Below, in pieces: positions 9,242 to 50,224 of a stretch of 64,000 nucleotides of DNA. The stretch is from a virus. Lineage: Duplodnaviria; Caudoviricetes. The notes below the pieces were generated by a model. It did not search any database, was not told where the DNA came from, and was given only the letters and a program-made list of their open reading frames with translations. The stretch lies in the IMG/VR virus record IMGVR_UViG_3300024262_000013. One strand, written 5' to 3'. Position 1 is the stretch's first letter. Each line of letters opens with the position of its first letter. The translations under genes were made by a program, and so were the position numbers.

Positions 9242-12073
9242 ATGTCTCAAGTAATAATAAGATTAACCTTAAGTTCAAATGCAGTCGGACCATTCAGTAT
9301 ATATACGGGCTCTACCGCAACTACGCCGATTAAAACGGGTGTAACTAGAGACCAAATTATTGCGGGAGTTGTTTTAGACTTACCAGGTTCAGTTGCAGGT
9401 ATTCAATACCTTATACTTGTAGTTAATAAACAAGTTGGTTGTAATAATGAAACTGTCTCTAAACAGGTAGTTGTTTACGAATCGGCAGTCACACCGACTG
9501 TTACTCCAACTCTTACTGTTACTCCAACTCTTACTCCAACAAATACAGTTACTCCAACAAACACTCCGACTCAGGCTCAGGCCACTCCAACGCCAACACA
9601 GACAGTAACGATGACTATGACAGTCACTCCAACAGTTACTACTACTCCAACAAACACTATTGATGTTACACCTACTAATACTCCAACTCAAACTGTGACG
9701 GTAACACCGACAGATACTCCAGGTGCTAGCCCAACAAGTACACCAACAAATACAGTAACTCCTACAATTACTCCTACAGTAACATTAACGTCTACACCAA
9801 CTAACACACCAACAGGAACACCATCAACTACTCCAGGTGTTACTCCAACTAACACACCAACAAATACAGTCACTAATACAGTAACTCCTACAATTACTGC
9901 AACGGTTACTAGTTCACCAACAGGTACGCCATCCGTTACTCCAACTAACACACCAACAGGAACACCAGCAACTACTCCAGGGATAACACCAACAAATACA
10001 CCAACTAATACTGTAACTCCATCAATAACTGCTGAAGTTACACCTTCAGTAACTGCAACAGTTACACCAACAGGTACACCATCTGTTACCGTTACTAACA
10101 CACCAACAAATACAGTTACACCGACAGGTACACCATCTGTTACCGTAACTAATACTCCAACAAATACTGTAACTCCAACAGGTACACCATCAGTTACGGT
10201 AACTAATACGCCAACAAATACTGTAACTCCAACAGGTACACCATCAGTTACGGTAACTAATACGCCAACAGTTACTACTACACCGACAGATACTCCAGGT
10301 GCTAGCCCAACAGTGACACCAACAAATACTGCGACACCATCCGTTACGCCAACTAACACACCAACTAACACACCAACTAACACAGTTACTCCAACAGGAA
10401 CTGCTCAAGTAACTCCTACAATTACACCTACAAATACTGTAACACCAACTCAAACTGCTGTAGTAACTCAAACTCCGACTCCAACCAATACGGTGACACC
10501 ATCTGCCACTGCTGAGGTAACACCAACACCTTCGGTAACCACTACAATCACACCTACCGCTACTGCTGAAATTACCCCAACACCTTCGGTAACGACTACA
10601 GTTACTCCAACAGGAACCGCTCAAGTTACACCAACAATAACGCCGACAAATACAGTTACTCCAACTAATACACCAACAGGTACTGCGTCAGTAACTCCGA
10701 CTAATACTCCAACAAATACTGTAACTCCAACAGATACTCCATCTGTTACTCCAACAGGTACACCATCAGTTACGGTAACTAATACGCCAACAGTTACTAC
10801 TACACCGACAGATACTCCATCCGTTACACCAACAGGTACCGCGTCAGTAACTCCAACTAACACACCAACTAATACTGTAACACCAACTAATACTCCAACT
10901 AACACAGTTACTCCAACAGGAACTGCTCAAGTAACACCAACGATAACGCCAACAAATACCGTTACCCCAACAGGTACCGCTCAAGTAACACCAACTAATA
11001 CACCAACTAATACTGTAACTCCAACAGGAACTGCTGCGGTAACATCAACTCCAAAACCAACTATTACAATTACGCCAACTAATACTGTAACTCCAACAGT
11101 TACTCCAACTAATACTCCAACAGGAACTCCGGCGGTAACATCAACTCCAGAACCAACTAATACGGTCACTCCAACTAATACTCCAACAGGTACCGCTCAA
11201 GTAACACCAACTCCAGGACCAACTAATACGGTTACTCCGACTAATACTCCAACAGGTACGGCAGCGGTAACTCCGACAATTACGCCAACTAATACTGTAA
11301 CTCCAACAGTTACACCAACTAATACACCAACAGGAACTGCGGCGGTAACATCAACACCAGAACCAACTAATACGGTTACTCCGACTAATACTCCAACTAA
11401 TACTTCAACGCCGACAAACACTCCAACCAACACCCCAACGACTACACCAACAAATACACCAACAAATACACCAACTAATACTGTAACACCAACACCAACA
11501 CCAACTCAAGGAGTAATACCTAAAGCTTTATTATTTATTATTGAAAGTACTAATAACAACGCATTTGCGACTTATATGAATAACCAAGGGTCAGGATTCT
11601 TTGGGTTTGGTTTCTCAACACCACCATCTACAGGTTCAGATATTGTAACATTTATGGATTGGCCAGGGTTCTATAACGGTACCGCACCTACTGTAATTGA
11701 GGCGGTTATACCTCAAACGTCAGGAGGGGTTGATTCCTTTGGTAATGCAATTACTCAATATAATTTTGAAACGACTGAAATACCTATAGGAACAGTTTCA
11801 GGAGCAGCTTGGTACTATTGGTTAATACCACAATCTCAGTTAGGATTAACATCTAATAGACAATTAGATATTGGTTATAATATTAATTCTGACCCTGGTG
11901 TACTCACTGCTAGGTCTCTGAGTCCATCAATATATAATTTAGCGGGTAATTATAGTGGAGTTAATTGGGCGGCCGATACTTATAGAATGTATACTTCGTA
12001 TGGTAATACCGCATTTAACATCCAGAATAATAATACTGATGATATATATTTTAAAGGTTTGACTGTCGGATAA
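9242..12073 (+). CDS. mucin-like Thr/Pro-repeat virion protein
   Basis: 943 aa; about 670 aa of (xT)n Thr/Pro repeat between two small globular domains; TATTTATA upstream. Confidence 0.75.
9488..11508 (+). repeat. Thr/Pro coding repeat tract
   Basis: ACN/CCN-dominated imperfect tandem repeats. Confidence 0.9.
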
Positions 12074-16937: not shown

Positions 16938-16962
16938 AAAGAGGACTTAGTCCTCTTTTTTT
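16938..16962. terminator. bidirectional intrinsic terminator
   Basis: AAAGAGGAC-TTA-GTCCTCTTTTTTT between convergent genes. Confidence 0.8.
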
Positions 16963-17221: not shown

Positions 17222-18490
17222 ATGGCACGTAAATCGCAAACAATTTTTGTACAAATAGCCGCCTACAGGGACCCTGAATTAGTCAAAACTATCGAAAATA
17301 TGATAGAAAATGCTAAAAGACCACAAAACCTTGTGTTAGGTATTTGTCGTCAATATCACCCTGAAGACGGGTTTGATAATTTAGATAAATATAGGGAAGA
17401 TAAACGATTCCGAATTAGCGATGTCTTGTATACCGACGCTAAGGGGGTATGTTGGGCTAGGAACCAAGTACAACAATTATATGATGGAGAAATGTATACC
17501 CTACAGATTGATTCACATATGAGATTTGCCCCTGATTGGGATGTTGAGTTAATAAAGATGATTAAGGACCTCCAAAAGAAGGGAATACCAAAACCATTGT
17601 TGACAGGATACGTTTCGTCATATGACCCTGATAATGACCCTAAAGGACGAGTACAAGAACCATGGAGAATGGTTTTTGACCGGTTTATTCCTGAAGGAGC
17701 TGTATTCTTTTTACCTGAAACAATACCAGGACATAAAGAACTTGATATCCCTGTACCATCAAGATTTTACTCAGCACATATGTGTTTTACTTTAGGTGAG
17801 TTTGCTGAAGAGGTACAACATAATCCTGAGTATTATTTTCATGGAGAAGAAATATCAATAGCGGTAAGAGCATTTACGTGGGGTTATGATTTATTTCATC
17901 CACATAAGACACTAATTTGGCATGAATATACACGTAAAGGTAGAACTAAACAATGGGACGATGACTCAACATGGGGAGACAAAAATAGTCACTCACATTT
18001 AACAAATAGAAAGTTGTTCGGTATGGATGGCGAAAAACAAGAAGGGCATGAGGGTATTTATGGTTTTGGTACTGAAAGAACATTAAGGGATTATGAGGAG
18101 TATTCAGGGCTATTATTCTCTAAAAGAGCGATACAACAACATACGATAGATAAAAATTATCCACCAAATCCAGGAATAAGTGATTTTAAAAATGAGGAAG
18201 AGTGGATAGAAAGTTTTTCATCGATATTTAAACACTGTATAGATGTTGGTTTTGATAAGGTTCCTGAGAAAGATTATGACTATTGGGTTGTGGCCTTTCA
18301 TGGTGAAAACGATAAAACTTTATTTAGAAAAGATGCCGATAAAAATGAGATTGATAGAATGATGAAGGACCCCGAAAAATACTGTAAAGTATGGAGAGAA
18401 TTCCCAACTGCAGAAAAACCTAAATATTGGGTTGTTTGGCCGTATTCTAAATCTAAAGGTTGGTGTGAGAGGATAACAGGTAATTTATAA
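17222..18490 (+). CDS. GT60/Gnt1-like (Pfam GlcNAc-type) polypeptide GlcNAc transferase
   Basis: TIFVQIAAYRDPEL, KGVCWARN, TLQIDSHMRF (DxH), FHGEE, WHEY motifs characteristic of the GT60/GT27-related fold. Confidence 0.75.
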   Translation: MARKSQTIFVQIAAYRDPELVKTIENMIENAKRPQNLVLGICRQYHPEDGFDNLDKYREDKRFRISDVLYTDAKGVCWARNQVQQLYDGEMYTLQIDSHMRFAPDWDVELIKMIKDLQKKGIPKPLLTGYVSSYDPDNDPKGRVQEPWRMVFDRFIPEGAVFFLPETIPGHKELDIPVPSRFYSAHMCFTLGEFAEEVQHNPEYYFHGEEISIAVRAFTWGYDLFHPHKTLIWHEYTRKGRTKQWDDDSTWGDKNSHSHLTNRKLFGMDGEKQEGHEGIYGFGTERTLRDYEEYSGLLFSKRAIQQHTIDKNYPPNPGISDFKNEEEWIESFSSIFKHCIDVGFDKVPEKDYDYWVVAFHGENDKTLFRKDADKNEIDRMMKDPEKYCKVWREFPTAEKPKYWVVWPYSKSKGWCERITGNL

Positions 18491-20073
18491 TGGTAGAAAA
18501 AATGGCAAATATAGCATTTTATGGTTCACATAATGCAACTGTGGCGGTAGAAAAAGAAGGTAAAATAATAACAGTAATTGAGGTAGAAAGATTCTTATCG
18601 ATGAAAAATGCGGGTTACGCTCAGTATTTGATATCGTACACTAGACCTTACTTAATGAAATATATTTTAAAATATATTGAAGACGAATATGGTATTTCAG
18701 AATATGAAAACTGTTATTATTTAAATACAGATACGATAGAAAATGGGACTAAAGTTCATTATGAGAAACTTATATCCGCAAAAAATTACCATAATTCATT
18801 ACATCACTTAAGTCATGCTGCTTGTGCATTATATCAAACTGATTATCAAGAAGCTTTAATAATTTCATTTGATGGCGGTGGTAATGATGGATTCTTCAAT
18901 ATATATTTAGCTAAAGATAGAGATAATATTCAATTATTAGAGAAGTATAATTTAGATTTAGGTTTTCCTTATATGTCTTTTGGGGACTATTTAAGTGATA
19001 TTCGTAAAGAACCGGCACTTAATATAGGTAATTTAGTTTATTCAGGTAAAATAATGGGTTTATGTTCTTATGGTAACGTTAATAAAGAATGGTTACCTTA
19101 TTTTGAGAATTATTATCGAAGAAAACCTGATGGGTTAAACTACAAAGAGTATTTAAATGATTTAAGTAATGAAACAGGTTTAATCTTTGATATTAATAAT
19201 AGACTTACAGGTCAAACCGCTTGGGATTTAAGTGCTACTTCTCAAGAGGCATTTGAAAATGTTTTTATGGAAATGGCTCAACCATTTTTAGATAAGTACC
19301 CTAATATTCCATTGATAACTGTTGGTGGATGTGCGTTAAACATTTTATTAAATACCAAATTACAAAAAATGTTAGATAGACCTGTTTTTGTACCACCAAA
19401 TCCTAACGATTGTGGTATCGCATCCGGTATGATATTAAATCACATCAAACCTAAAACCGCGATTGATTTAACTTATGCCGGTACAGAAGTGTTAGATAAA
19501 CATACTTTAATGTCACACGTTGAAGAAAGAAGAGCTAAGGAGTTAGATATTAACATATTATCTAAAGACTTGTCAGAAGGTAAAATTGTTGGAGTCGTAA
19601 GAGGAACGTCAGAACATGGACCTAGAGCGTTAGGTAATAGAAGTATTATTTGTAACCCCGCTTATCCTGATATGAAAGACACATTAAACGCTAAAGTTAA
19701 AAATCGTGAGTGGTATAGACCTTTCGCTCCCGTATGTAGATTAGAGGACGTTGAAAAATACTTTAATTTTTCAGGTGAAAGTAAATGGATGAGTTTTTGT
19801 CCGACAGTTAGAGAAGAATGGAGAGAAAAATTAACATCAATAACACACGTTGATGGTACGGCTAGAGTTCAAACAGTTACTTATGAACAAAACCCTTGGT
19901 TATATAATTTAATTGGGGAGTTTGAAAAATTATCAGGTATTGGGGTTTTATTGAATACGTCATTCAACGTTAACGGTAAACCAATCTTGAGTAGATATGC
20001 AGATGCGTTAACTGTATACGATAAAACTAAACTAGATTGTTTAGTACTCTCAGATTATTATTTTAAAAAATGA
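18490..20073 (+). CDS. O-carbamoyltransferase (NodU/CmcH/TobZ family)
   Basis: HHLSHAA, YSGKIMGL, GGCALN, DCG, GPRALGNRSI, RPFAP, HVDGTARVQTV, LNTSFN motifs. Confidence 0.92.
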   Translation: MVEKMANIAFYGSHNATVAVEKEGKIITVIEVERFLSMKNAGYAQYLISYTRPYLMKYILKYIEDEYGISEYENCYYLNTDTIENGTKVHYEKLISAKNYHNSLHHLSHAACALYQTDYQEALIISFDGGGNDGFFNIYLAKDRDNIQLLEKYNLDLGFPYMSFGDYLSDIRKEPALNIGNLVYSGKIMGLCSYGNVNKEWLPYFENYYRRKPDGLNYKEYLNDLSNETGLIFDINNRLTGQTAWDLSATSQEAFENVFMEMAQPFLDKYPNIPLITVGGCALNILLNTKLQKMLDRPVFVPPNPNDCGIASGMILNHIKPKTAIDLTYAGTEVLDKHTLMSHVEERRAKELDINILSKDLSEGKIVGVVRGTSEHGPRALGNRSIICNPAYPDMKDTLNAKVKNREWYRPFAPVCRLEDVEKYFNFSGESKWMSFCPTVREEWREKLTSITHVDGTARVQTVTYEQNPWLYNLIGEFEKLSGIGVLLNTSFNVNGKPILSRYADALTVYDKTKLDCLVLSDYYFKK

Positions 20074-20957
20074 AAACAAAAATAGTTACATTCGTATATT
20101 TTGGCATAAATGACTTTCCTTTTTATGGTCACGAACCACAGGCTAGGTGGGATAGATATAAAAATTCACTTTTACAATTATCAGAAATGGGTTTACCTAT
20201 AGTTTGTTATTGTGGTAGTAACGTTTACCCTGAATTAAAAAAATTACTTGAAACCAATGAGGTAAAAAATATAGATTTAAGAATTAGGGAATTAGAAGAT
20301 TTTCGTCATAGTAAAAGTATGATTAAGATTAAAGAAAAAAACCCTGAAAAATTTAACTTTTACTTAGAAGTCGGATGGGCTAAAATTGCCTTAATGGAAG
20401 AGGAAATGGAAGATGATTTAGATTATTTATATTGGGTCGATATTGGTTTATCTCATGTTGGGTTATTTCCTTTTAGATTTAATAGTAATGGTGATAAGAT
20501 TACAGGTACGTCAACAAATAAATATAGATACACTTTCGATAAAATTTTTAATACAGATACTTTTAAAAAAATTAATAATTGGGTAGGTGATAAATTAATT
20601 AATTTAACGAACACTCAATTTTTTCATAATGCAACTACACTTAATAATACTTTAGATAAAAAACACAAATATAAGTCTTTAACCGTTGGTGGAATTATTG
20701 GGGGACATGTTAGTAAACTTCCTAACTTTTTTAAATCATTTGAAGAATACTCTCAAGTATGTTTAGAAAAAGAGTATTTACTAAATCATGAAGCGATGAT
20801 GTCTACAATCTCTTACGATAGACCTGAGGATTATGAAACATTTATATTTGGAACATGGTATCACGAGGATACACCAATGAAACATGTTACAACAGAATTT
20901 TTAAACAGTAAAAAGAGTTTTTATAAATTCTTTGAGGAAATAGAAAATAAAAAATGA
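20070..20957 (+). CDS. HtrL/YibB (WlaTC)-like glycosyltransferase
   Basis: TKIVTF, LYWVDIGLSH, VGGIIGG motifs; paralogous to the central domain of 21507..23891. Confidence 0.6.
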   Translation: MKTKIVTFVYFGINDFPFYGHEPQARWDRYKNSLLQLSEMGLPIVCYCGSNVYPELKKLLETNEVKNIDLRIRELEDFRHSKSMIKIKEKNPEKFNFYLEVGWAKIALMEEEMEDDLDYLYWVDIGLSHVGLFPFRFNSNGDKITGTSTNKYRYTFDKIFNTDTFKKINNWVGDKLINLTNTQFFHNATTLNNTLDKKHKYKSLTVGGIIGGHVSKLPNFFKSFEEYSQVCLEKEYLLNHEAMMSTISYDRPEDYETFIFGTWYHEDTPMKHVTTEFLNSKKSFYKFFEEIENKK

Positions 20958-20979: not shown

Positions 20980-21507
20980 ATGAAAGATTTAAATCAAATT
21001 TTCCCACAATTAAAAGACCTCGACACCAACTTAAATAATTTAGACGGTTGGGCACTATCTATAGAGTGTTTTTATTGGATATATAATAATATTGAAAAAG
21101 GTTCAAACATTATTGAGATAGGTAGTGGTCCTGGAACGATGGAGTTATCTAAACACTTCAACACATATAGTTTAGAACATCAAGAGAGATTTACAAAATT
21201 AGCACCTAAAGCTAATTATATACTAACAGAATTAGTAGATGGTTGGTACGAACCTGAAATAGTTTTTAATTCTTTACCTGAAGAATATTCTCTTATTATT
21301 GTTGATGGTCCACCTAACTTAGGTCAAGAAAAAACTAGAAATAATATTAAAAAGTATTGGGATAGGTTCGATACTTCAGTACCTATAATTATGGATGATA
21401 CACATAGACAAGATGAATATGAATTTGCTATTGAAACTGCAAAAGAATTAAATAAAGAGTGGACTCAATACGAAGGGTGGCAAAAAAACTTTATAGTGTT
21501 GACATAA
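20980..21507 (+). CDS. class I SAM-dependent methyltransferase
   Basis: IIEIGSGPGT motif I, LIIVDGPP, IIMDD. Confidence 0.7.
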   Translation: MKDLNQIFPQLKDLDTNLNNLDGWALSIECFYWIYNNIEKGSNIIEIGSGPGTMELSKHFNTYSLEHQERFTKLAPKANYILTELVDGWYEPEIVFNSLPEEYSLIIVDGPPNLGQEKTRNNIKKYWDRFDTSVPIIMDDTHRQDEYEFAIETAKELNKEWTQYEGWQKNFIVLT

Positions 21508-23891
21508 TGATAGAATTAAAAAAAACAGATTATTTTAATGATGCTCTACATCATTTGGGTAAAAAGGGTGAGAAATTATTCACACTTAATATCGGTGCGA
21601 TGGATGGGATTACTTTTGATGAGATGTCAGGGTATATAAAAATGTATAACTTTAAAGGGTTATATGTTGAACCTATTCCTGTTTATTATGACTTATTAAA
21701 AGAAAATTATAATGATGATGGTAATTTATTTGAAAATAGTGCAATTTCAGATTATGATGGAGAAATAACAATGTTAACCATTGATAAATCAGTTATTGAC
21801 CAAGGATTAGTTCATCCAGCATTTTTAGGGATGAGTGCGGTATACCCACCAAAGAATGGACTAGGTAGTGAAGGTGACCGTGAAGTGGTTGAAAAATACG
21901 GAAAAAAAATTACAGTACCATGTATTACCTTCAATCATCTATTAACTAAACATAATATAGATAGTTTTGATGTTGTTAAAATTGATGCCGAAGGACATGA
22001 TTATAATATTTTTAAACAAATTGATTTAAAAAAATATAGACCTAGAATTGTAAGAGCGGAATGGTCAAGTATTGAGGATTTTGAGAAAACATCTTTGATA
22101 GAACAATTAAATAGTGCGAATTACATATATGGTATCGAAGCAGATGATATTGTTGGTATTACTAAAGAGTTATATGATGAGATTTACAATAAAAAAGAAG
22201 AAATAATGGTAGATATGAAAAGTAATGGGGTTACTATAGTCACAGGTTTATGGGATATAAAAAGAGATGGACTTACAGAAGGATGGTCACGTAGTTATGA
22301 GCATTATTTAGAGAAGTTTTCACAATTATTAGAGACACCTAATAATATGATTATTTTTGGAGATAAAAAATTAGAAGAATTTGTCTTTAAAATTAGACAA
22401 CATGAGAATACTCAATTTATTGTTAGAGACCAAAGTTGGTTTAAAGGAGAATTTTATGAACCAATTCAAAAAATAAGAACTAATAAAGAATGGTATAATC
22501 AAACAGGATGGTTAGGGGAATCAACCCAAGCTAAATTAGATTTATATAATCCATTAGTGATGTCTAAACCATATCTTTTACATGACGCAAAAATTATGGA
22601 TAAATTTAAATCCACTCATTTATTTTGGTTAGATGCCGGTATCACCAATACTGTACATAACGGATATTTTGTTAAGGATTTATTTTTAGGTAAGATGGAA
22701 AAAACTGACAAAATGACGTTCATTGCCTTTCCATATGAGACTAATAGTGAAATTCATGGGTTCGAATATAATAAATTAAATGAATTGGCCGGTGGTAAAG
22801 TAAATAAAGTATGTAGAGGGGGGTTTTTTGGGGGACCAGTTGAAGATATATCTGATTTTAATACGGAATACTATAATTTAATGAAAAGTACTCTAAAAGA
22901 CGGATATATGGGTACAGAAGAGTCTCTATTTTCGATTCTTTTATATCGTTACCCCGAAAATTACCAATACTATCTTATAGAGGGAAATGGGTTGATTAAT
23001 AAATTTTTTGAAGATGTTAAAAATGATAATCATGTAGTATTAAGTGAGTCAAAAACTATATCATTAAAAAATGATTTAGATATTAATAATACTGCACTCT
23101 ATGTGATAACATTTAATAGTCCTAATCAGGTTAAAACATTAATAAAATCAATGAAAGAATATGATGAAGATTTTGTTACTAAACCAAAATGGATTTTATT
23201 AGATAATTCAACAGATTTAAGTACCACACCAGAATATGAGAGATTATGTGAAGAGTATGGGATTACTCATATTAAAAAAGATAATTTAGGTATCTGCGGT
23301 GGTAGACAATGGGTTGCTGAACACGCCGAAGAGAATGGGTACGACTACTATTTCTTTTTTGAAGACGATATGTTTTTTTATCCTAAGAAAGGTGAGGTCG
23401 GTAAAAACGGTTTTAATAGGTTTGTTAGTGGGTTATATAGGAAATCCTTACAAATATCTAAAAAAAATAATTTTGACTTTTTAAAATTATCATTTAGTGA
23501 ATTTTACGGAGATAATAGAGTTCAATGGGCTTGGTACAATGTACCTCAAGAATTTAGAGAAATTCATTGGCCCGAAAAACCAACATTACCTGTCCAAGGT
23601 TTAGACCCTAATGCTCCTAAAACTAAGATAACTAAAATAGATACATTTAACGGTGTACCGTATGCTCACGGGGAAATTTACTATTGTAATTGGCCTCAAG
23701 TGGTATCTAAATATGGTAATAGAAAAATGTTTTTAACTGAAAAATGGTCTAGACCATTTGAACAAACATGGATGTCATATATATTTCAAGAAACTGTAAA
23801 AGGTAATATTAATCCAGGAATTTTACTACTTACTCCAACTGAACATGACCGATTTGACCATTATGATGGTAAATTAAGAAAAGAGTCATAA
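21507..23891 (+). CDS. FkbM methyltransferase - HtrL-type GT - GT-A-like three-domain fusion
   Basis: Start reassigned to ATG 21507 (TAATG coupling). IGAMDG, VEP, KIDAEGHD (FkbM); VTGLWD, FWLDAG, GGFFGG (HtrL); ILLDNS, GICGGR, FFEDD (GT-A). Confidence 0.7.
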   Translation: MIELKKTDYFNDALHHLGKKGEKLFTLNIGAMDGITFDEMSGYIKMYNFKGLYVEPIPVYYDLLKENYNDDGNLFENSAISDYDGEITMLTIDKSVIDQGLVHPAFLGMSAVYPPKNGLGSEGDREVVEKYGKKITVPCITFNHLLTKHNIDSFDVVKIDAEGHDYNIFKQIDLKKYRPRIVRAEWSSIEDFEKTSLIEQLNSANYIYGIEADDIVGITKELYDEIYNKKEEIMVDMKSNGVTIVTGLWDIKRDGLTEGWSRSYEHYLEKFSQLLETPNNMIIFGDKKLEEFVFKIRQHENTQFIVRDQSWFKGEFYEPIQKIRTNKEWYNQTGWLGESTQAKLDLYNPLVMSKPYLLHDAKIMDKFKSTHLFWLDAGITNTVHNGYFVKDLFLGKMEKTDKMTFIAFPYETNSEIHGFEYNKLNELAGGKVNKVCRGGFFGGPVEDISDFNTEYYNLMKSTLKDGYMGTEESLFSILLYRYPENYQYYLIEGNGLINKFFEDVKNDNHVVLSESKTISLKNDLDINNTALYVITFNSPNQVKTLIKSMKEYDEDFVTKPKWILLDNSTDLSTTPEYERLCEEYGITHIKKDNLGICGGRQWVAEHAEENGYDYYFFFEDDMFFYPKKGEVGKNGFNRFVSGLYRKSLQISKKNNFDFLKLSFSEFYGDNRVQWAWYNVPQEFREIHWPEKPTLPVQGLDPNAPKTKITKIDTFNGVPYAHGEIYYCNWPQVVSKYGNRKMFLTEKWSRPFEQTWMSYIFQETVKGNINPGILLLTPTEHDRFDHYDGKLRKES

Positions 23892-23904: not shown

Positions 23905-23927
23905 AATCGCTTATGCGATTATTTATA
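23905..23927 (+). promoter_or_regulatory. putative late promoter with adjacent inverted repeat
   Basis: AATCGC-TTAT-GCGATT running into TATTTATA (23920-23927). Confidence 0.55.
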
Positions 23928-23945: not shown

Positions 23946-26900
23946 ATGGTTGGATATAAGGTAGGTCAAAAAGTTTTATTGCTTGACGGGTCTTTTTTGA
24001 ATATTGAAAATGTTCAAGAAGGTATGTTATTGCAAACTATTGCTTTGCCCAATGATGATATAACTAAAGATGGTTTACAATGGTCCACTAAAGAAATAAA
24101 GGAGTTACGATATGTTTCTTCTGAAGTTAACAAAGTTTCCAAACAAAATAATGAATTTATTAGTATTAATGAATTATCATTAAATGATAAGGAAATATTG
24201 GTATATGATACCGTAGATTCGAAGTTCGAGTTTAAAAATGTTAAAGACTTATCCTTAGGTGATGATTATAAGTTAGTAAGAATTGATGGAGATAGTATAC
24301 TATTGGAAAATATTTATAGTTATGAAAAATCTAATAACGAAGAAGATTTAATATCTATAAGTTTAAATGGTCCTTTTCATTATCTTTTAGATGGGTACAT
24401 AGTACATAATGATGTTCCAAACATTTGTGTTCGTAATTGTTCTAATAATGCGATAGCATGTATTGGTAATACCTCGACACCACCTTTAGTGGCGGGTAGT
24501 ACTGGGTTTATAGATAATTTTGGTAATTGTTGGTTAGCGATTAGTGACTGCAATAGTTGTACCCCTACCGTATCATTTACAGGTACAATACAGTCGGTAT
24601 GGAATGGTAGCTCATGTCTTGATTGTCCTAGTAGTGATGTAACACCAACCCCAACACCAACCCCAACAATTACACCTACAATAAATAATGGTCAATTTCA
24701 GTCTTGTTGTCCTCCTTTTGGCTCTACTAATCTTTCATATACAAATGGGTCTATAAATGATATATTTATTTATAATGGTGGTTGTTATAAACTCATAAAT
24801 TCTTTGGGTTTCGGTGGTCCAATGGCTACATTGTCCACAGAATTTGCCGATTGTGAAAAGTGTGTTTTGGAAAATCCTTGTTCTGAACCAACTCCGACTC
24901 CAACCAATACTCCTACTCAAACTCCGACTCCAACCAATACTCCTACTCAAACACCTACAAATACCCCGACTATAACTCCTACGGAAACAGTAAGTTATCG
25001 TGAATTACGAATTAGAGATTGTTGTACTGATACTTTAGAACTATCTATTATGGTTCCTGACGCTTTAATTAATAATTTTATTACCACTGGTGCTGCATTC
25101 ATTTTTAATGATTGTTGTTATTATGCGTTTGCTACAGGTGGAAGTGGTAGTGATGGTGTTAGAAACACATCCGATTCAACTGATTGTAATAAATGTCAGA
25201 CGACGCATCCATGTGCCGAATGGTTAATAGATGCTATTGATTGTTGTGATGAATCGATAACGTTATCAGAAAAATTCATAGTGGCTTGTTCCGACCCACT
25301 AATAAAACCTAGTGTATTATACGGCGATGTTTTTACTTATAATGGTACGTGTTGGGATATTGTAAGTGAAACCCAAACAACAGGAGCAACAATAACGTTA
25401 GATATTAGTGACTTTTATAATGACTGTCCTTCTTGTGTGACTTGTCCAACAAACACACCTACCAATACTCCAACAAACACACCGAAACCAACAGTAACTC
25501 CATCTGTAACTACTACTCCATCTGTAACTACAACTCCAACAGATACTCCAGCTGTAACTAAAACTCCAGCTGTAACTACAACACCAACAGGTACTCCAGC
25601 TGTAACTAAAACGCCATCAGTAACAGTAACTCCAGCTGTAACTACAACACCAACAGGTACTCCAGCTGTAACTAAAACGCCATCAGTAACAGTAACTCCA
25701 GCTGTAACTACAACTCCAACAGATACTCCATCTGTAACAGTAACTCCATCTGTAACTGTAACTCCATCTGTAACTACAACTCCAACAGATACTCCATCAG
25801 TAACAGTAACTCCAGCTGTAACTACAACTCCAACAGATACTCCATCAGTAACAGGTACTCCAGCTGTAACTACAACGCCATCTGTAACTGTAACACCAGA
25901 TGTAACTACAACTCCAACCAATACACCTACTCAAACGCCAACAGGAACTGCTCAAATAACTTTGACTCCAACTAACACCCCTACTCAAACGCCAACTAAT
26001 ACACCAACAGGTACTCCTTTATCTACTCCTGGTGTAACACCTACTAATACTCCGACAGGAACTGCTCAAATAACTTTGACTCCAACCAATACACCTACTC
26101 AAACGCCTACTAATACTCCAACTAATACTCCAACTGAAACGCCGACTAATACACCTACCGAAACAGCTAACGTAACTGCTACACCTACTGAAACACCTAC
26201 AAATACCCCAACTAATACTCCGACCAATACAGTAACTCCAACAGGTACTCCTCAAGTAACTCCAACGAATACCGTTACCCCAACAGGTACGGCAGCGGTA
26301 ACTCCAACTAATACTCCGACCAATACAGTAACTCCAACAGGTACTCCATCAGTTACACCTACAAATACCCCAACAAATACTGTAACTCCAACAGGAACTG
26401 CACAAGTTACTCCGACAATTACACCAACAAATACGGTTACTCCAACTAATACGGTTACTCAAACTGTTACGCCAACTAATACGCCAACTCAGACTGTTAC
26501 GGTGACTCCAACGGATACTCCAGGTGCGAGTCCAACATCGACACCTACTAATACGGTAACCCCTACAGTTACACCAACAAATACACCAACAACTACTGTA
26601 ACTCCTTCAATAACTGCTGAAGTTACACCAACAGGTACTCCTTCAGTAACAGTAACGCCAGATGTAACTGTAACTCCATCAGTAACAGTAACTCCATCAG
26701 TTACACCTACAAATACACCAACTGAAACTGCTAACGTAACTCAAACTCCTACTGAAACTCCAACTAATACTCCAACAGGTACTCCTGGTGTAACACAAAC
26801 TCCTACTGAAACACCAACTGAAACACCAACCAATACGCCTACTAATACACCAACAGGTACTCCTGGTGTAACACAAACTAATACACCTACCGAAACTGCT

Positions 26901-29660
26901 AACGTAACTCAAACTCCTACTCAAACGCCTACTGAAACACCAACTAATACTCCAACGGGAACTGCTCAAGTAACTCAAACACCTACTGAAACTCCGACAA
27001 ATACCCCGACAGGAACTGCTCAAGTAACTTTGACCCCTACCGCTACTTTGACATCTACACCAACAAATACCCCAACTAACACTGTTACACCAACAGGAAC
27101 ACCATCAGTTACACAAACTAATACACCAACTCTTACTGTTACACCAACAGGTACCGCTCAAGTTACTCCAACGAATACCCCAACAAACACAATTACTCCC
27201 TCAATTACAAGTAGTGTTACACCAACTATTACTCCAACTAATACAGTAACACCAACGATAACACCAACAGTTAGTGTCACTGTCACGCCAACAGGTACAC
27301 CGGGAGCAAGTCCAACATCCACTCCAACTAACACTCCAACTAATACTGTAACACCAACTATAACCCCTACCAATACTGTAACACCAACTAATACTCCAAC
27401 ATTAACCCCAACATCTTCGACTGCTGGGTGTTCGGCAATTATAACCACAGGTACTACTGTGACCTCTACACCAACACCAACACCAACACCAACACCAACA
27501 CCTCAAGGGGGTACATCTGTCGGTGGTGAGGTGACTTTCGTAATTGACCAAGGATATTTTGACTGTGGTGAAGTAGCAAGATTAACTAATTGTGTAAACC
27601 TTAGTAATGTAATACAAGAATTTTACGTTACGTCCCCAATAACTTATAGTGGAGGTACCGTAACATCGGGTACAACATTTAATGGTACTATAGATGGTAT
27701 AGAATATTGCTTAACGTTTGTTGAGGAAATTGATGGTTCTTCAACACATATTTTAACATCTGTTAATAGTGTAGATGCCGATTGTGCCGATTGTATTACA
27801 CCTAGCCCAACACCAACAGTTGAATATTTTAGTCTATTTGAAAGATGTAATGGTGTACCATGTACAGAAACTGGTATTAACTTTGGTGAACAAACCGACC
27901 CTAATACGATTATCTCTAATTGGGTTAGATTCTCATCATTCGCAGGTGTTAATTATCCTGGAACAACTATTAAATCAGGATTACAAACAAATGGTAGTAT
28001 AATTACTAATGACCCTTCAAAATATTTCTATACAGGTACAACTAACCTTGATTACTTAGGTGTTTTATCTTCTGTAATGACAGAAGGTGAAAACGTTGGA
28101 CCATCAGGTTTACAACAAAATAATACTGATAGTGGTAAATTCTACTATAATAACTTTATTAATAAATTTGTAGTTTGGTTTAATGTCAAGGGACAAACAA
28201 ATGGTTGGAAATGGGCAACATGGGACCCAACAGAAAATACCGGTTTACAATACGGTAACCCGACAGCCACAAGATTTTTAACTACAAGTACTAATTGGTC
28301 GACAGCATCTTTAACTATTTCAAATCTAACCGTTAGTGGGGCATCTAATACAGTTGTTACTGCAATTAATAAGATTACTGATGCTGGTGGTGTTACGGAT
28401 ATGATTCAGTGTTCGCAGAATAGTGGGTTATATAATGGTTTTTACTCTACTTGTGGATATGAGGAATATACACATGAGGTTACTATGGGTAGTACCGCGA
28501 CTGATAATGATACTATAGGTCTTGTCTTAGCAGCATTTAAAGATAATGATGGTATATATGGTCCATCAGGTCAAACACAAACGTTACAATTAACTATTAA
28601 CGGGGATAATAATAACTCTAGAATAATTTTCAATCAAAATAATAATACTCAATCGTTTACTGATGGTGCCGGTAATTTCAATACTTTAGTATGGCAAGGT
28701 ACTTCACCATATGGTTCGGGTAATTATAACGGTAAAGGTCAAATTAGATTTAAAGTTGTAAAAACAGGTACAACAATAAGTGTTTATAATACAAGTAAAA
28801 TGGGTACAGGTAATGGTCAATTACCTATAGGTTCAACTAACCCATATACACTATTAGTTTCTATAGATTTAACTGATGATGCTACATGGACAAACAAACC
28901 TTCATATGCAGTTGGAACTGAGTTATTAAGGTTTACGGGTGGTACTCAATTTGGGTACTTAACCGCATCACAAAGACAAACACAATTCTACGATATTGTA
29001 TTCTCAGGTTCACAACAGACAAATGATGATTCATTATATGCTGTAGGTCTTACAACCCCTGGAGCTAATAACGTATCAACCTTTAACGAAGTGGGTGGTT
29101 GTTGGGATTATGTAGGTGAAGTAACGGGATATACGGGTCCAACATATTCATTAACTATAGACAATGTATACGTTAATTGTACTCAATGTCCTACAGATGA
29201 TACACCTTTACCATCTAGTACACCATTAAGTAGTAGTGTACCAACATCAACACCGACACCTACTCCAACACAAACACCTATAATACTACCGACCCCAACA
29301 CCAACTCCGACGCCACAACCATCGGGTCCTCATCAAATATGGGTATCAGGACCAGTAGGTCCTAGTAGTTGTAGTACTTTCTGTTCAATAAACTATAATG
29401 TAAGTTTAGAATTAACTTGTGATGGGATAGACGCAACCCAACCAACACATATATTTGGTATTCAAAATGGTATTGAAGGTGGTCACTACGCTTATTATTG
29501 GATTGGTGCATCTAATACTGGTACCGGAAATACAGGAGTATTTAGAATTGCTCAATGTAGTACTGAAAATGACCCATCAAGTCCAAATTATGGGTTATTC
29601 GGTAAATGTGATGGTGATTTATTTGAATGTGGTGCAGGGTCACAATGTGTACCAATTTAA
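23946..29660 (+). CDS. giant virion protein: N-terminal Hint domain, Cys-rich modules, mucin-like Thr/Pro stalk, possible lectin-like C-terminal region
   Basis: 1904 aa; [20 protein letters not shown]...[10 protein letters not shown] Hint; DCC/DCxxC repeats; about 690 aa of (xT)n. Confidence 0.7.
25444..27500 (+). repeat. Thr/Pro coding repeat tract
   Basis: Sub-blocks of [16 protein letters not shown] and TPTNTVTP units. Confidence 0.9.
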
Positions 29661-29767: not shown

Positions 29768-31063
29768 ATGACTACAGTATCAGTAAATACGGCAACAGGA
29801 ACATCACCCTTTCAAATATGGGTGGCAAATGGTTGTGGAGTTAATGCTCAACAAACTTATATTAGTCAAATTATTAGTGCGGATATCCCATATACATTTA
29901 ACTTACCATCTCAGTATGAAAATTCTCCATTCTGTGTTAAAGTAATTGATTCGGATAATTGCGAAGTTTGTGATTGTTTTGGTTTTGGTCCGACGCCAAC
30001 ACCTTCAGTAACCGCAACGGTAACTCCTACGGTAACTGTTACTCCAACACTGACTCCGACACCTACCGTTTCTGCACCATGTCCAACTCCGACATATTAC
30101 TATGGTTCATTTACAGGTAACGGATTTACCTCATCCGCAACATATACCTTATCTCCAACATTACACAATGGAAGAGCTCAGTGGGTCTCACCAAGTAACG
30201 GAACAATACAGTGGGTTGGGAATAGATGGGAAGTGTCATTTTATAATTTAGCTGGTGTTTTATATTATAACCTAAATATGACTATAGATTCACCTGATAC
30301 TATAAATTGGGTATTACAGGGATGTGCCGCGGATTTCCAATGTGCGGTTTCATTCACAATTGGAGGATGTGGTTTACCGACCCCAACACCTACTACTACT
30401 CCAACAATGACTCCAACCCCTACCGTCACATCAAGTCCGGGAGCTAGTCAAACACCAACACCTACGAATACGCCAACCAATACGCCAACCAACACTCCGA
30501 CTCAAACACCAACTAACACACCTACCAATACTCCAACAAATACTCCAACAAATACTCCAACACCAACTAATACCCCAACGACTACTCCAACGACTACCCC
30601 AACGACTACTCCAACGACTACTCCAACTAATACGACTACTAACACACCGACTCCAACAGTTACTCCTTCATCGACAAGAGGCGTGATTTATAACTTCTAT
30701 TATACGATGGCATTAGGTAGTAGTGGTATGAGTAATGGTAAAATAATGTTTAGTCCGAATGGTTCAATCAGTAGCTCAACGTTATCGATAACGGGGGCGA
30801 CAGATATTTTAGTTGCGAGAGAAGAAAATGGTTCTATCGATAGAACTGATGAACTAACAGGTGTAACTACAGGTAGTGAATTTTTAATTACATCCATAGA
30901 TAATCCTTTTGAAAATGTTGTATTAACAGTTGATGAGCCCGACCCACTATTCAGCGTAGCCCAAAGTTTTGTTAGGTTTCCTATATTAACTTTAGAAAGT
31001 TACACAAATGAGCCACCTTTTAGTGCTGGTGAATCATTAGAATTAACAATAACCTTACAATGA
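29768..31063 (+). CDS. Thr/Pro-repeat virion protein
   Basis: 431 aa; N-terminal domain resembles that of 9242 (GTSPFQIW vs VGPFSIY); two PT tracts. Confidence 0.65.
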   Translation: MTTVSVNTATGTSPFQIWVANGCGVNAQQTYISQIISADIPYTFNLPSQYENSPFCVKVIDSDNCEVCDCFGFGPTPTPSVTATVTPTVTVTPTLTPTPTVSAPCPTPTYYYGSFTGNGFTSSATYTLSPTLHNGRAQWVSPSNGTIQWVGNRWEVSFYNLAGVLYYNLNMTIDSPDTINWVLQGCAADFQCAVSFTIGGCGLPTPTPTTTPTMTPTPTVTSSPGASQTPTPTNTPTNTPTNTPTQTPTNTPTNTPTNTPTNTPTPTNTPTTTPTTTPTTTPTTTPTNTTTNTPTPTVTPSSTRGVIYNFYYTMALGSSGMSNGKIMFSPNGSISSSTLSITGATDILVAREENGSIDRTDELTGVTTGSEFLITSIDNPFENVVLTVDEPDPLFSVAQSFVRFPILTLESYTNEPPFSAGESLELTITLQ

Positions 31064-43536: not shown

Positions 43537-45912
43537 ATGGATTTATTTAATCCACCAAAAGAATTAAATTATAGTTATATGAACCATAAACTAAATGTAG
43601 ATACTTTAGAAAATCCTTACATACAAGTTGTTTGGGAGGACACTCCGGATAATTTTACTCAAGAAAGATTAAAGAGAGTTAGGTCTTATTTTGAAAAAAA
43701 ATATAAATCTAAAAATGTTAATGTCATAACGAAAGTTAAGGCCGATGATATGGATATGCAATCTGTTGACGTATCTATGAATATTTTAGACGACAACTTT
43801 CAAAAAGAATTAATAAAGAAATATCTCATCTCTAATGGTTACGAAAAGACTTTAGATGAGATATTAAGTATTGATGGATTAGTAGAGGATAAAATAGCTT
43901 CAGAAAAATCAGATATAACCCCATTCAAAAAATGGTATATAAAGAATATTGAGTTCTCTAATTTCTTATCTTTTGGTGATAATCAAGTATTGGATTTTGA
44001 AAAAGTATCGGGTATAACTGCGGTAGAATCTAATCCACCTAATTTTGGGGGTAAAACAGTACTAACGGTAGACCTTCTATTGTTCTTGTTCTTTAACACC
44101 ACTACTAAAACCAATAAGGCGGAGGAAATATTTAACAGATTCAGAAATAAAGATAAAGTTGTAGTTAAAGGAGAAATTCAAATTGATGGCGAGGATTATA
44201 TAATTGTACGCGAAGTAAATCGTAAATTAAAAAGAAATAAAATAGAATATACTGTTAGTACTAGTTTAGAGTTTTTTAAGAAATTATCAGATGGTAGTCT
44301 TCAAAATTTTACTGGTGAACAGAGAAGAGAAACTGAAGAGTTTATTAAAAAATCCATAGGCACTATGGATGACTTCTTAATGACAATATTAACAACATCA
44401 ACTAATTTAGAAGAATTAATCGACTGTAAACCAACAGCAAGGGGTCAGGTATTATCAAGATTTTTAGGTTTAGATTCACTTAAACTAAAAGAAGATGTTG
44501 CAAAGGAAATAACGTCAAACTATAGTAAAGGAATGATTTCAAACATATATAATGTTGAATCTCTAAAAGAGGAGATTGATATTGCTAAAATGGATATAGC
44601 TCAAGAAAATATAAATATTCAAACATATGTTGATGAACTTAATAATGTTAATGGTAGAATTGAGAAAGGTCACGGATATCGAGATGATTTGATTAAGAAA
44701 AAACATACAGGGTTAGATAATGAATTACTAAGAATTAATCCTGAATTAATGGAGAATGAAATTAAGGAATATGGTTCACGAATAGGGACAACCCTTAAAG
44801 AACTCACAACTATTAATGTGATTGAACCATCAAAATATTACCATGAAGATGAGCATGATGATGTAAAGGAGTTACTATCTGAAGAAAAAATTAAAATGGG
44901 TACTATGTCGTCTAAGAGAGACGATATTACTGAAGAACTAAAAACTTTTGAGGGAGGTTTGGAATGTCAGTATTGTGGGATAGTGTTAGCTCAATCTACT
45001 TATACCGAAAATAAGAAAAAGGAATTAAAAACTTTAATAAGTGATGTTGTGGAGATGTTAGCTACTGTTGATTTGTTAACAGGAAAAGAAAAATCATTCG
45101 TTGAACTTAAAAAAGACTTTGACCAATATGAAAGAAATAAGTTAATTAAGGAAAAATTTGAAATTCAACTAGAGACCCTAGAGTTGAAAAAGAATGGGTT
45201 AGAAGATAGACTTAGACGTTTCAAAGAGGTACAGATTAAATTAGAAGATAATAAAAAAATAGACGAAACTATTCTTAAAGCTGATATGAGGTTAGATGTT
45301 TTAACTGTGGAAAGAGATGGTGTAAACACTAAAATTAGTGATTCTAAAAATAACATTAAAAATAGGGATTCTAAAATTGTTGAGAATAATGAATTTATTG
45401 TTAGAATTAAAACTGAAGAAAAAAAATTAAGACTATATAAAATATACTTAGAACTATTTGGTAAAAAGGGTATTACTAAGATGATTATGAGAAGTATGAT
45501 GCCAGTTATTAACTCTGAATTACAAAGACTTTTAGTTGATTCGGCAGAGTTTAAATTAGAGGTTAGGGTTTCAGAAAAAGATGAGGTAGAATTTTGGATG
45601 GTTGATAATAATACCGGTATTGAAAAATTAATGAGTTCAGGTTCAGGATATGAGAGGTCTATAGCGTCATTGGCGTTAAGAGCGGTATTAAGTAAAGTTT
45701 GTTCATTACCTAAGCCAAACATAGTTGTATTTGATGAAGTATTTGGTAAAATTTCTAATGAAAATTTAGAGATGGTATCTCAATTTTTCCAAAAAATTAA
45801 AGAATACTTTGAAAAAATATTCGTAATAACTCATAATCCTTTAGTGAGTCAATGGGCAGATACTGTAGTGAAAATAAATAAAGAAAATAATATTTCAAAA
45901 GTAGAGCAATGA
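43537..45912 (+). CDS. SbcC/Rad50 (gp46-like) ABC ATPase with N-terminal extension
   Basis: IEFSNFLSFG, atypical Walker A NPPNFGGKT, CQYC Zn hook, SGYE signature, VVFDEVFG, ITH. Confidence 0.88.
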   Translation: MDLFNPPKELNYSYMNHKLNVDTLENPYIQVVWEDTPDNFTQERLKRVRSYFEKKYKSKNVNVITKVKADDMDMQSVDVSMNILDDNFQKELIKKYLISNGYEKTLDEILSIDGLVEDKIASEKSDITPFKKWYIKNIEFSNFLSFGDNQVLDFEKVSGITAVESNPPNFGGKTVLTVDLLLFLFFNTTTKTNKAEEIFNRFRNKDKVVVKGEIQIDGEDYIIVREVNRKLKRNKIEYTVSTSLEFFKKLSDGSLQNFTGEQRRETEEFIKKSIGTMDDFLMTILTTSTNLEELIDCKPTARGQVLSRFLGLDSLKLKEDVAKEITSNYSKGMISNIYNVESLKEEIDIAKMDIAQENINIQTYVDELNNVNGRIEKGHGYRDDLIKKKHTGLDNELLRINPELMENEIKEYGSRIGTTLKELTTINVIEPSKYYHEDEHDDVKELLSEEKIKMGTMSSKRDDITEELKTFEGGLECQYCGIVLAQSTYTENKKKELKTLISDVVEMLATVDLLTGKEKSFVELKKDFDQYERNKLIKEKFEIQLETLELKKNGLEDRLRRFKEVQIKLEDNKKIDETILKADMRLDVLTVERDGVNTKISDSKNNIKNRDSKIVENNEFIVRIKTEEKKLRLYKIYLELFGKKGITKMIMRSMMPVINSELQRLLVDSAEFKLEVRVSEKDEVEFWMVDNNTGIEKLMSSGSGYERSIASLALRAVLSKVCSLPKPNIVVFDEVFGKISNENLEMVSQFFQKIKEYFEKIFVITHNPLVSQWADTVVKINKENNISKVEQ

Positions 45913-46814
45913 TAAAAATAATAGTTACAGGTGGAATGGGGTTCATCGGGTCTCATTTCGTTAATAAATTAAAAGAAAGTGTAATTGATTGTGAGATTAC
46001 TGTCATAGATAAATTAACATACGCGGCAAACCCTAATAATCTTAATACTCAAGTTAAGTTCATTAAAGAGGATATATGTAGTTTAACGGAATTACCCGAT
46101 TGTGATTATATTATTCATTTTGCGGCTGAATCCCATGTAGATAATTCCATTGAAGACGGTAGACCATTTGTGAGAACAAATGTTGAGGGGACCTTTAATA
46201 TGGTTGAGTTAGCTTTAAAAATTAAGGGGTTAAAAAAGTTTATACATATATCTACAGATGAGGTATATGGTGACATGAAAGATTACGGTTTGGATGTAAC
46301 TGCAGATGAAGATTTTTCATTAGTTGGGTCATCTTATTATTCCGCAACTAAGGCTTCTTCAGATTTAATAGTTCAATCTGCGGGTAGAACATTTGGTTTA
46401 CCTTATATCATTACTAGAACTTGTAATAATTTTGGTGAGAATCAACATTCTGAAAAGATGGTACCTAAAATCATCAAGATGATTAAAAATGATGAACCTA
46501 TTCCGGTATACGGTGATGGTGAACAGATAAGGGAATGGATACATGCTGACGATAATGCTCAATCAATAATTAATATAATGTTATCGGACGAAGTTAATCA
46601 AGTTTTTAATATTGGTAGTGGTTATCGTATCACTAATAATCAATTAATTAAAATTGTCTCAGAGATAGCAGGAAAAGATGTTAAATTTGAATATGTTAAA
46701 GATAGGTTAGGTCATGATAGAAAATATGCATTAAACATATCTAAGTATAATGAAAAATTCGGTAATTTAATATATATTGACCTTAAAGAATGGTTAACAA
46801 AAATTATAGGTTAA
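45909..46814 (+). CDS. rmlB: dTDP-glucose 4,6-dehydratase
   Basis: GGMGFIGSHF, HFAAESHVDNSI, STDEVYG, YSATK, REWIH, DRLGHDRKY. Confidence 0.85.
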   Translation: MIKIIVTGGMGFIGSHFVNKLKESVIDCEITVIDKLTYAANPNNLNTQVKFIKEDICSLTELPDCDYIIHFAAESHVDNSIEDGRPFVRTNVEGTFNMVELALKIKGLKKFIHISTDEVYGDMKDYGLDVTADEDFSLVGSSYYSATKASSDLIVQSAGRTFGLPYIITRTCNNFGENQHSEKMVPKIIKMIKNDEPIPVYGDGEQIREWIHADDNAQSIINIMLSDEVNQVFNIGSGYRITNNQLIKIVSEIAGKDVKFEYVKDRLGHDRKYALNISKYNEKFGNLIYIDLKEWLTKIIG

Positions 46815-50223: not shown

Positions 50224-50224
50224 T

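Follow-up and report, generated by a model that had tools for sequence, protein, structure and literature searches.

The question raised by this locus is which molecule a phage would modify with a glycosyltransferase (GT) of a family that initiates protein glycosylation. The window analysed here is a stretch of 64,000 nucleotides from the IMG/VR virus record IMGVR_UViG_3300024262_000013 (Caudoviricetes), and the gene in question, at 17222..18490 on the + strand, encodes 422 aa from ATG to stop and was assigned to GT60 / PF11397 from its open reading frame (ORF), motifs, Pfam and PHROG matches and a structural model. We consider it probable that this enzyme starts sugar chains on the phage's own fibre-like Thr-Pro repeat proteins, and that the gene cassette it belongs to extends and caps those chains. 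The family membership, the fold, the cassette structure and the genomic coupling of the enzyme with Thr-Pro repeats are observed directly, and nothing points to the substrate as strongly as the link between the enzyme and the giant Thr-Pro proteins in its vicinity.

The original prediction, made from the DNA letters without database searches, had named a GT60/Gnt1-like transferase with an extra C-terminal domain. The motifs it quoted are all present in the translation (AAYRDPEL, residues 13-20; GVCWAR, 75-80; QIDSHMRF, 95-102; FHGEE, 206-210), and the family call is borne out by a match to Pfam PF11397 'GlcNAc' (E 9.3e-64, 216.5 bits against a cut-off of 21), the sole family found in a Pfam search reported at E≤0.01. 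This match reaches profile positions up to 349 of 352, and the Pfam model ends at residue 298, so that the tail of the protein lies outside the described family domain. PHROG 24687 spans residues 6-419, tail included, which makes the tail part of an existing phage protein family, and more than 7,300 metagenomic homologues have the same length of ~420 aa. The statement that the family is characterised mainly in protists holds for its biochemistry but not for its sequences, as the enzyme with its tail is widespread in phages and in the chromosomes of many bacterial phyla. No PDB chain, GT27 enzymes included, was matched by sequence, either with phmmer and the single sequence or with a 45-sequence profile. 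By profile, fold and motifs the phage protein is a member of GT60, and judged by sequence it is not a member of GT27.

The GT-A catalytic domain (17237..18136, + strand; ~residues 6-305) was delimited from invariant columns and fold matches. Among 45 full-length relatives, with identity down to 36%, the invariant positions include D97-x-H99 (QIDSH), E209/E210 (HGEE) and H234 (WHEY). The phage protein therefore has the DxH-type motif and downstream His of its family, and by analogy with GT27 we take D97, H99 and H234 to be metal ligands. There is no signal peptide, membrane segment or hydrophobic leader, and the first beta-strand starts at residue 8, so the enzyme is predicted to be soluble and cytoplasmic. 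An AlphaFold2 model built from the 45-sequence alignment had a mean predicted local distance difference test score (pLDDT) of 95.5 and a predicted template modelling score (pTM) of 0.90. The Foldseek comparison that had been proposed as a check returned human GalNAc-T2/T4, mouse T1, Drosophila PGANT9 and Toxoplasma T3 as top matches (E ~3e-10), and a structure search independent of Foldseek agreed, with mGalNAc-T1 at Z 21.1 (281 residues, 3.9 Å) and TgGalNAc-T3 at Z 19.9. The closest structures are thus polypeptide GalNAc-transferases, at 11-16% identity in the structural alignment, and neither a DNA-modifying nor a small-molecule GT came out best. Polysaccharide and teichoic-acid GT-A enzymes score lower, at Z 17.1 or below, with TarP in mid-list (Z 15.9) under the polypeptide transferases.

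The tail is as Trp-rich as had been noted, with 6 Trp in the last ~95 residues (YWVVAF, KVWREF, YWVVWPYS, GW), a share of ~6% against a usual ~1.3%. It contains a beta-sandwich domain at ~residues 334-422 (18221..18487, + strand), mapped from a domain-only AlphaFold2 model and alignment conservation. This is indeed an extra domain: it is conserved in phage and bacterial relatives and folds independently, since residues 310-422 modelled alone, from a 42-sequence alignment of phage and bacterial loci, gave seven strands and two short helices with a pLDDT of 95. DYDFW, R369 and W414 (GW) are conserved in two alignments. Foldseek with the isolated domain found no match at E≤1e-3. In a wide structure search FN3 domains came out best, led by NCAM (Z 7.6, 79 residues, 2.8 Å) and followed by tenascin and fibronectin and then by other Ig-like sandwiches; with Z below 8, this is a tentative indication of fold class. 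No beta-trefoil was present among the best 50 structure matches (all Z 7.6 or lower), and Pfam gave no ricin match. The suggested analogy with the lectin domain of ppGalNAc-Ts is therefore not supported at the level of the fold, and the models lean strongly towards a two-sheet sandwich of ~90 residues rather than a ricin-type lectin.

Not all relatives carry this domain. A search of 1.84 billion representatives with the GT60 protein gave 4,485 matches at E≤1e-3, and by hand count the tail was covered in ~60 of the best 150, the others ending near residue 305-345. The tail thus defines a subfamily. Some of the matches that lack it sit inside multi-GT proteins of 1,000-2,400 residues. Repeated GT60 units were also seen: a gammaproteobacterial metagenome-assembled genome (MAG) encodes two in tandem within one ORF (L104:8001-10703), and up to four GT60 stretches are present in proteins P0124-P0126, representatives of 1,600-2,460 residues.

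The giant ORFs that flank the cassette were translated because the GC skew is strongly negative at 10-12 kb and 26-28 kb, and these proved to encode candidate acceptors. The first, of 943 aa (9242..12073, + strand; translation and composition scan), consists of a short N-terminal module, ~660 residues of TPTxT / (xT)n repeats and a globular C-terminal module, and 695 of its residues fall in S/T/P-rich windows. The second, a translated ORF of 1904 aa (23946..29660, + strand), starts 55 nt after the cassette; it is built of long Thr-Pro tracts in alternation with modules that are Cys-rich or globular, and residues 1482-1577 give a weak match to a PHROG 'tail fiber protein' (E 3.7e-6). A 431-aa protein (29768..31063, + strand), with ~196 S/T/P-rich residues in the composition scan, is a further candidate, and phrog_15511 is common to it and the other two. 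The cassette is set between fibre-like ORFs and these repeat proteins. Just upstream of it lies a 361-aa fibre-like protein (15825-16910), whose C-terminal 120 residues match two PHROGs (E 1.7e-40 and 3.6e-37) and form a conserved fibre-end module.

The pairing of enzyme and repeats recurs across phages and bacteria. A Thr-Pro ORF was scored where T≥30% and P≥20% over 40 residues were found within 3 kb of GT60; a first criterion based on S/T/P-rich ORFs was noisy in high-GC bacterial DNA and gave way to this stricter rule and to whole-genome DNA pattern counts. By this rule 66/80 viral GT60 loci have a Thr-Pro ORF, mostly directly upstream and on the same strand, as do 20/80 bacterial loci from species genomes. 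The bacterial neighbours are small proteins in which a twin-arginine-type signal (RRxLLQALG, RRQFVKYL) precedes a tract of pure (TPTx)n, and they occur with or without an HtrL-like gene. They were found in Acidobacteriota, a Deltaproteobacteria MAG, Halieaceae, Acidimicrobiia, Alphaproteobacteria and Gemmatimonadota. Examples are the proteins at L118:4555-5469, L120:4934-5458, L140:4748-5473, L158:4807-5469, L128:9491-10252 and L145:9509-10144. These signal sequences suggest that glycosylation would take place in the cytoplasm, before export by the twin-arginine translocation (Tat) route. Two Halieaceae copies end in a hydrophobic helix and a basic tail.

Whole-genome counts of TPTxTPTxTPT point the same way and bring out the rarity of these tracts. 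One bacterial genome of 4.4 Mb has a single match, the GT60 neighbour; another, of 4.5 Mb, has two, neither more than 3 kb from GT60; and a third, of 4.2 Mb, has matches at two loci, one of them the GT60 neighbour. In a fourth, tracts of this kind are too numerous to inform on pairing. In some bacteria a PqqD/RRE domain, which serves in peptide recognition, joins the system. GT60 carries it as an extra C-terminal domain in L135 (8001-9527; 25.1 bits), in L128 (8001-9620; 21.8 bits, just below the cut-off) and in L145 (8001-9578), and in L096 (7143-7937) and L099 (7227-7967) a PqqD domain is instead fused to a Thr-Pro tract directly upstream of GT60. From their sequences, these arrangements resemble the logic of ribosomally synthesised and post-translationally modified peptides (RiPPs) applied to a glycosyltransferase.

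The link can also be read in reverse. Among the matches listed, PF11397 is encoded in 21 of the 73 searchable viral contigs that were picked only by the DNA pattern TPTxTPTxTPTxTPT, and in 12 of the 18 such contigs of ≥100 kb. A pattern-based scan of 2.9 million viral contigs set a lower bound of at least ~313 that carry GT60. Six GT60 phage records (XacN1, Xoo-sp13, G001, G002, G003 and G004) have 12-97 matches to TPTxTPT, with 0-1 in reversed-pattern controls, and the pattern is absent from phiKZ, T4, phage G and 201phi2-1, a small set of four GT60-less controls totalling 1.26 Mb. The XacN1 tracts are carried by six fibre-like paralogues (ORF232-237) and by the giant ORF384. ORF232-237 (L168, 124048-133104) have a common N-terminal module, a Thr-Pro linker of 80-100 residues and divergent C-terminal modules, while ORF384 (L169, 272200-280671), of >2,800 aa and with a phosphodiesterase annotation, contains seven or more such linkers. 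When adjacency to a Thr-Pro ORF was mapped on a tree built from 135 catalytic domains, no fewer than 14 changes of state were counted, indicating that this adjacency is not one inherited block. Finally, a same-strand Thr-Pro neighbour was found at 15 of 64 loci with the C-terminal domain against 0 of 14 without it (one-sided hypergeometric p ~0.04, hand-computed), the latter being mostly from Burkholderiaceae.

Several observations weigh against the proposal that the repeat proteins are the substrates. The coupling of GT60 to Thr-Pro repeat proteins and PqqD domains is a genomic association, and many of the viral loci are kin, drawn from a single broad lineage of phages, which means that they do not count as independent cases. 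Although one repeat gene abuts the cassette, the nearest are ~5 kb from the GT60 gene itself, and in the complete relative G003 the repeat genes are far from GT60. The association with the C-terminal domain did not survive a phylogenetically paired test, in which independent pairs were few (5-6). Thr-Pro linkers occur in non-glycosylated proteins too. The virion location of the repeat proteins is deduced from their size, their fibre-like neighbours and the one weak tail-fibre PHROG match, and the donor sugar and acceptor residue are taken by analogy, from family precedent only.

Some of these points would also fit an enzyme that glycosylates other proteins, whether those of the host, for takeover, or non-repeat phage proteins, with the Thr-Pro proteins as mere neighbours in a structural module. 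The synteny of related viral loci could be inherited, and GT60 does not stand beside repeat genes in G003 or in the XacN1 group. This explanation has to contend with the reverse and cross-phylum links, namely the 21/73 repeat-selected contigs among the matches listed, the single-locus bacterial genomes and the PqqD fusions, and with the many Thr-Pro tracts in every tested GT60 phage genome against none in the four large phages that lack the enzyme. We regard it as highly improbable.

If the repeat proteins are glycosylated, the genes next to GT60 hint at what is built on them. The five cassette genes that it leads, all on the + strand, have overlapping or near-abutting boundaries. The GT60 stop is overlapped by the start of a NodU/CmcH-type O-carbamoyltransferase (18490..20073; Pfam Carbam_trans_N and _C), whose NCBIfam NodU-like score of 163 bits is under the equivalog cut-off. 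Its own stop is overlapped by the start of a 295-aa HtrL/YibB-like putative GT (20070..20957), which resembles the HtrL domain of the 810-aa protein described below (local BLASTP, E 5e-5) and whose Atlas neighbours bear PF09612. A 175-aa protein follows (20980..21507), with no significant match in Pfam, PHROG or NCBIfam; one of its Atlas neighbour clusters has Methyltransf_24 in 17% of members, a lead only to a possible small methyltransferase. The last gene (21459..23891; Pfam, NCBIfam) encodes an 810-aa fusion of an FkbM methyltransferase (45-223), an HtrL_YibB domain (258-509) and a GT-A-like domain (~600-810). Across 83 loci, a homologue of the 810-aa protein adjoins GT60 on the same strand in 78, and one of the HtrL-like protein lies downstream in 52. 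The carbamoyltransferase is an optional member, found beside GT60 in only 8 of the 83, including the Xanthomonas jumbo phages XacN1 and Xoo-sp13 (46% identity), which keep the order GT60, carbamoyltransferase, HtrL-like protein, 810-aa homologue. In bacterial loci L146 and L151, GT60 is fused to an HtrL_YibB domain.

A consensus scan placed two terminator-like hairpins, one with a T-run just past the fibre-like gene that precedes the cassette (16938..16958, + strand), and another directly after the last cassette gene (23905..23920, + strand). The number of such hairpins in the region is not above that in shuffles, and their placement just before and after the cassette is suggestive. A promoter scan of the region stayed at chance level. 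Further off, the window encodes a dTDP-glucose 4,6-dehydratase-like short-chain dehydrogenase/reductase (SDR; 45909..46814, + strand; Pfam Epimerase / GDP_Man_Dehyd; TIGR01181 at 299 bits, under the equivalog cut-off), which might provide a 6-deoxy sugar with which to extend the chain, and a second NAD-dependent sugar epimerase/reductase-like enzyme (50201..51091, + strand; Pfam, NCBIfam).

Such a gene set could also build or alter a glycan that is not attached to protein. This could be host lipopolysaccharide, capsule or another envelope polysaccharide, changed so as to mask receptors or exclude superinfection, or else a glycan that is free or linked to lipid. HtrL/YibB and FkbM are families typically seen in lipopolysaccharide and O-antigen loci, the PHROG class of both GT60 and the carbamoyltransferase is 'moron, auxiliary metabolic gene and host takeover', and the next-best folds after the polypeptide transferases are polysaccharide GT-A enzymes (K4CP, Z 17.1; heparosan synthase, Z 16.7). 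Yet the best folds are protein-modifying and clearly above these, the GT60 protein has no membrane segment, and the ORF list and family scans gave no flippase, polymerase, undecaprenyl-phosphate transferase or membrane-anchored partner around the cassette. The repeated adjacency to Thr-Pro proteins and PqqD domains across phyla would also be left unexplained. We therefore judge a non-protein glycan to be unlikely.

The carbamoyltransferase raises a different possibility, namely that the cassette hypermodifies phage DNA, with glycosylated or carbamoylated 5-hydroxymethyl-pyrimidines evading restriction as in T-even phages, TET-associated GT systems and phages with 5-carbamoyloxymethylcytosine. 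A phage NodU-type carbamoyltransferase acting on 5-hydroxymethylcytosine (5hmC) has been demonstrated (PMC8670742), and it is of the NodU/CmcH/TobZ superfamily, like the enzyme encoded next to GT60. There is a dCMP deaminase in the window and a ThyA-family gene in the near-identical record G001; the third domain of the 810-aa protein gives a sub-threshold 18 bits against TET-associated GTs (cut-off 27.5); and in XacN1 the cassette adjoins DNA polymerase and RNase H genes. However, the 5hmC carbamoyltransferase co-occurs with a ThyA-like dCMP hydroxymethylase, and those carbamoyltransferases that were flanked by glycosyltransferases were the ones on unmodified contigs (PMC8670742). The cassette enzyme has glycosyltransferases for partners. 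The ThyA homologue of G001, encoded 85 kb from the cassette, bears canonical motifs (PPCH, LPFN(I)SSY), with Asn at the position that tells dUMP from dCMP enzymes (PMC8670742). The ThyA family is absent from G002 (98% complete) and G003 (100% complete). Tet_JBP gave no match in five related records, a weak negative since the search control was silent too. DNA-acting phage GT-A enzymes are JGT/TarP-like, with R...DDD...EDY/F motifs (10.1101/2023.12.21.572611), while the phage GT60 has DSH (QIDSH) in place of DDD and is best matched by polypeptide transferases. DNA modification would, moreover, leave the links to Thr-Pro proteins and to PqqD domains in bacteria unexplained, and we find it highly unlikely.

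Returning to the repeat proteins as substrates, the following course of events can be proposed. During infection, a soluble, cytoplasmic, metal-dependent GT-A enzyme would move a HexNAc from a UDP-sugar onto Thr hydroxyls, the sugar being, if family precedent holds, alpha-GlcNAc from UDP-GlcNAc. It would act, before or during virion assembly, on giant fibre-like or decoration proteins that the phage itself encodes, with their Thr-Pro tracts as acceptors. The HtrL-like GTs and the extra GT-A domain could then extend the chain, fed by phage-encoded sugar-nucleotide enzymes, and capping could follow through O-methylation by the FkbM methyltransferase and O-carbamoylation by the NodU-type enzyme. 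The product would be a mucin-like, protease-resistant, extended stalk. The FN3-like sandwich, an accessory domain specific to the subfamily, would most likely hold or position a repetitive or partly glycosylated acceptor near the active site; this role, like the glycosidic linkage, we infer. Characterised GT60 enzymes depend on Mn2+ and transfer alpha-GlcNAc onto Thr in Thr-rich mucins; the peptide KPPTTTTTTTTKPP also serves as an acceptor (PMC3769586; PMC8724618).

Thr is not the only residue that recurs in these tracts, as Pro is just as regular. The characterised GT60 member Gnt1 acts on hydroxyproline (Hyp), according to references given in PMC8724618, and the window holds two adjacent genes for prolyl 4-hydroxylase (P4H)-type 2-oxoglutarate-Fe(II) oxygenases (37445-38056 and 38200-38835; OGFOD2-like; PF13640 at 29.4 bits). 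A phage P4H could accordingly make Hyp in the Thr-Pro tracts for GT60 to glycosylate in place of Thr, as in the Dictyostelium Gnt1 route. But the oxygenase genes are 20 kb off, in a block of nucleic-acid-metabolism genes; of five large GT60 phage records just two contain PF13640, and a 100%-complete one lacks it; and oxygenase homologues occur in one of ~160 GT60 loci. A prolyl-hydroxylase partnership as a general rule was rejected because the pairing of oxygenase and GT60 is not conserved, and for this phage we consider Hyp a very unlikely acceptor.

With Thr as the more plausible acceptor, the phage enzyme can be set beside known systems. It shares its Pfam family and the DxH-type metal motif with the protist GT60 enzymes T. 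cruzi TcOGNT-2 and the Dictyostelium Golgi pp-alphaGlcNAcT, whose acceptors are Thr-rich, Pro-containing repeats (PMC3769586) of the kind expected here. The Skp1-Hyp transferase Gnt1 is cytoplasmic and soluble, as the phage enzyme is predicted to be. The phage and bacterial enzymes differ from protist GT60, which has been described without a targeting domain (PMC8724618), in their FN3-like C-terminal sandwich. The phage enzyme, known here from its sequence, differs also in heading an operon with carbamoyl- and methyl-transferases. The closest solved fold is that of animal and apicomplexan GT27 (GalNAc-T1/T2/T4, TgGalNAc-T3), which has mucin-type acceptors and the same layout of catalytic plus C-terminal accessory domain; the GT27 accessory is, however, a ricin-type trefoil of ~130 residues, and that of the phage enzyme, which has no membrane anchor, a beta-sandwich of ~90. 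By analogy, the phage enzyme most likely works like a mucin-type initiating transferase.

We know of no GT60 enzyme in the virion glycosylation system of mycobacteriophages. There, according to Freeman et al. 2023 as cited in PMC12619734, phage GTs modify the phage's own structural proteins in the cytoplasm. The glycans described in that citation are on C-terminal extensions of capsid and tail-tube subunits, whereas the acceptors proposed here are long internal Thr-Pro tracts of giant accessory proteins. The Atlas neighbours of the HtrL-like protein include Nucleocytoviricota clusters. Giant viruses such as chloroviruses and mimiviruses use their own GTs, methyltransferases and sugar-nucleotide enzymes to build capped glycans on virion proteins, but differ in their eukaryotic hosts, acceptor types and initiating enzymes.

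To our knowledge, mucin-type O-glycosylation initiated by GT60 or GT27 is treated as a eukaryotic trait, and phage virion glycosylation has been documented so far only in mycobacteriophages. A literature search, not exhaustive in its coverage, found no description of phage or bacterial GT60 with Thr-Pro substrates or of mucin-like phage fibres. We somewhat favour the wider view that GT60-plus-sandwich enzymes represent a widespread, undescribed form of mucin-type O-glycosylation in prokaryotes and phages, which would give, in large aquatic and soil phages, methylated and sometimes carbamoylated glycan brushes on the Thr-Pro tracts of giant fibre or decoration proteins and, in bacteria of many phyla, pre-Tat glycosylation of small Thr-Pro repeat proteins, sometimes guided by a fused PqqD/RRE domain. 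In that case a mucin-initiating family characterised biochemically only in protists would also have large bacterial and viral branches. The analysis links a eukaryote-type initiating enzyme with the proteins it probably modifies in phage and bacterial sequences from the environment that number in the thousands. If the idea holds, the purpose of the abundant Thr-Pro 'linkers' in large aquatic phages would be explained, and there would be a candidate mechanism by which phage appendages resist proteases, gain stiffness or adhere. Bacterial glycoproteins could be suggested to follow a cytoplasm-then-Tat route, and the small soluble enzymes might be used to glycosylate simple repeat tags. Two carriers, the Xanthomonas phages XacN1 and Xoo-sp13, are in culture, making the idea directly testable.

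As for the phage itself, megablast of the 11-kb neighbourhood against phage records gave no match. The nearest record, G001, has a GT60 that is 98% identical and is a viral contig of 99.7 kb with an estimated completeness of 34%, which puts the genome near 300 kb. The closest matches in species genomes (71-74% identity) are on short contigs in MAGs (GC content 0.34) that were binned as Saprospiraceae or Bacteroidia, and a Bacteroidota host is thus a reasonable guess from these sequences. Recent work has described large Bacteroidota phages of aquatic origin whose core genes include several glycosyltransferases (PMC12619734). The window is AT-rich (28-42% GC), has nearly all genes on one strand and contains no tRNA genes; it encodes a primase, an SbcC-like nuclease, an exonuclease, a RuvC-like resolvase, the dCMP deaminase and a sigma-70 family factor with regions 2 and 4 (53798-54607). 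A CysK-like cysteine synthase (39694-40569; TIGR01136, 297 bits) is an auxiliary metabolic gene, as are the two sugar SDRs. SprB repeats (PF13573), which are typical of Bacteroidota gliding adhesins, occur in phage proteins of 2081 aa (2885-9130) and 545 aa (31086-32723).

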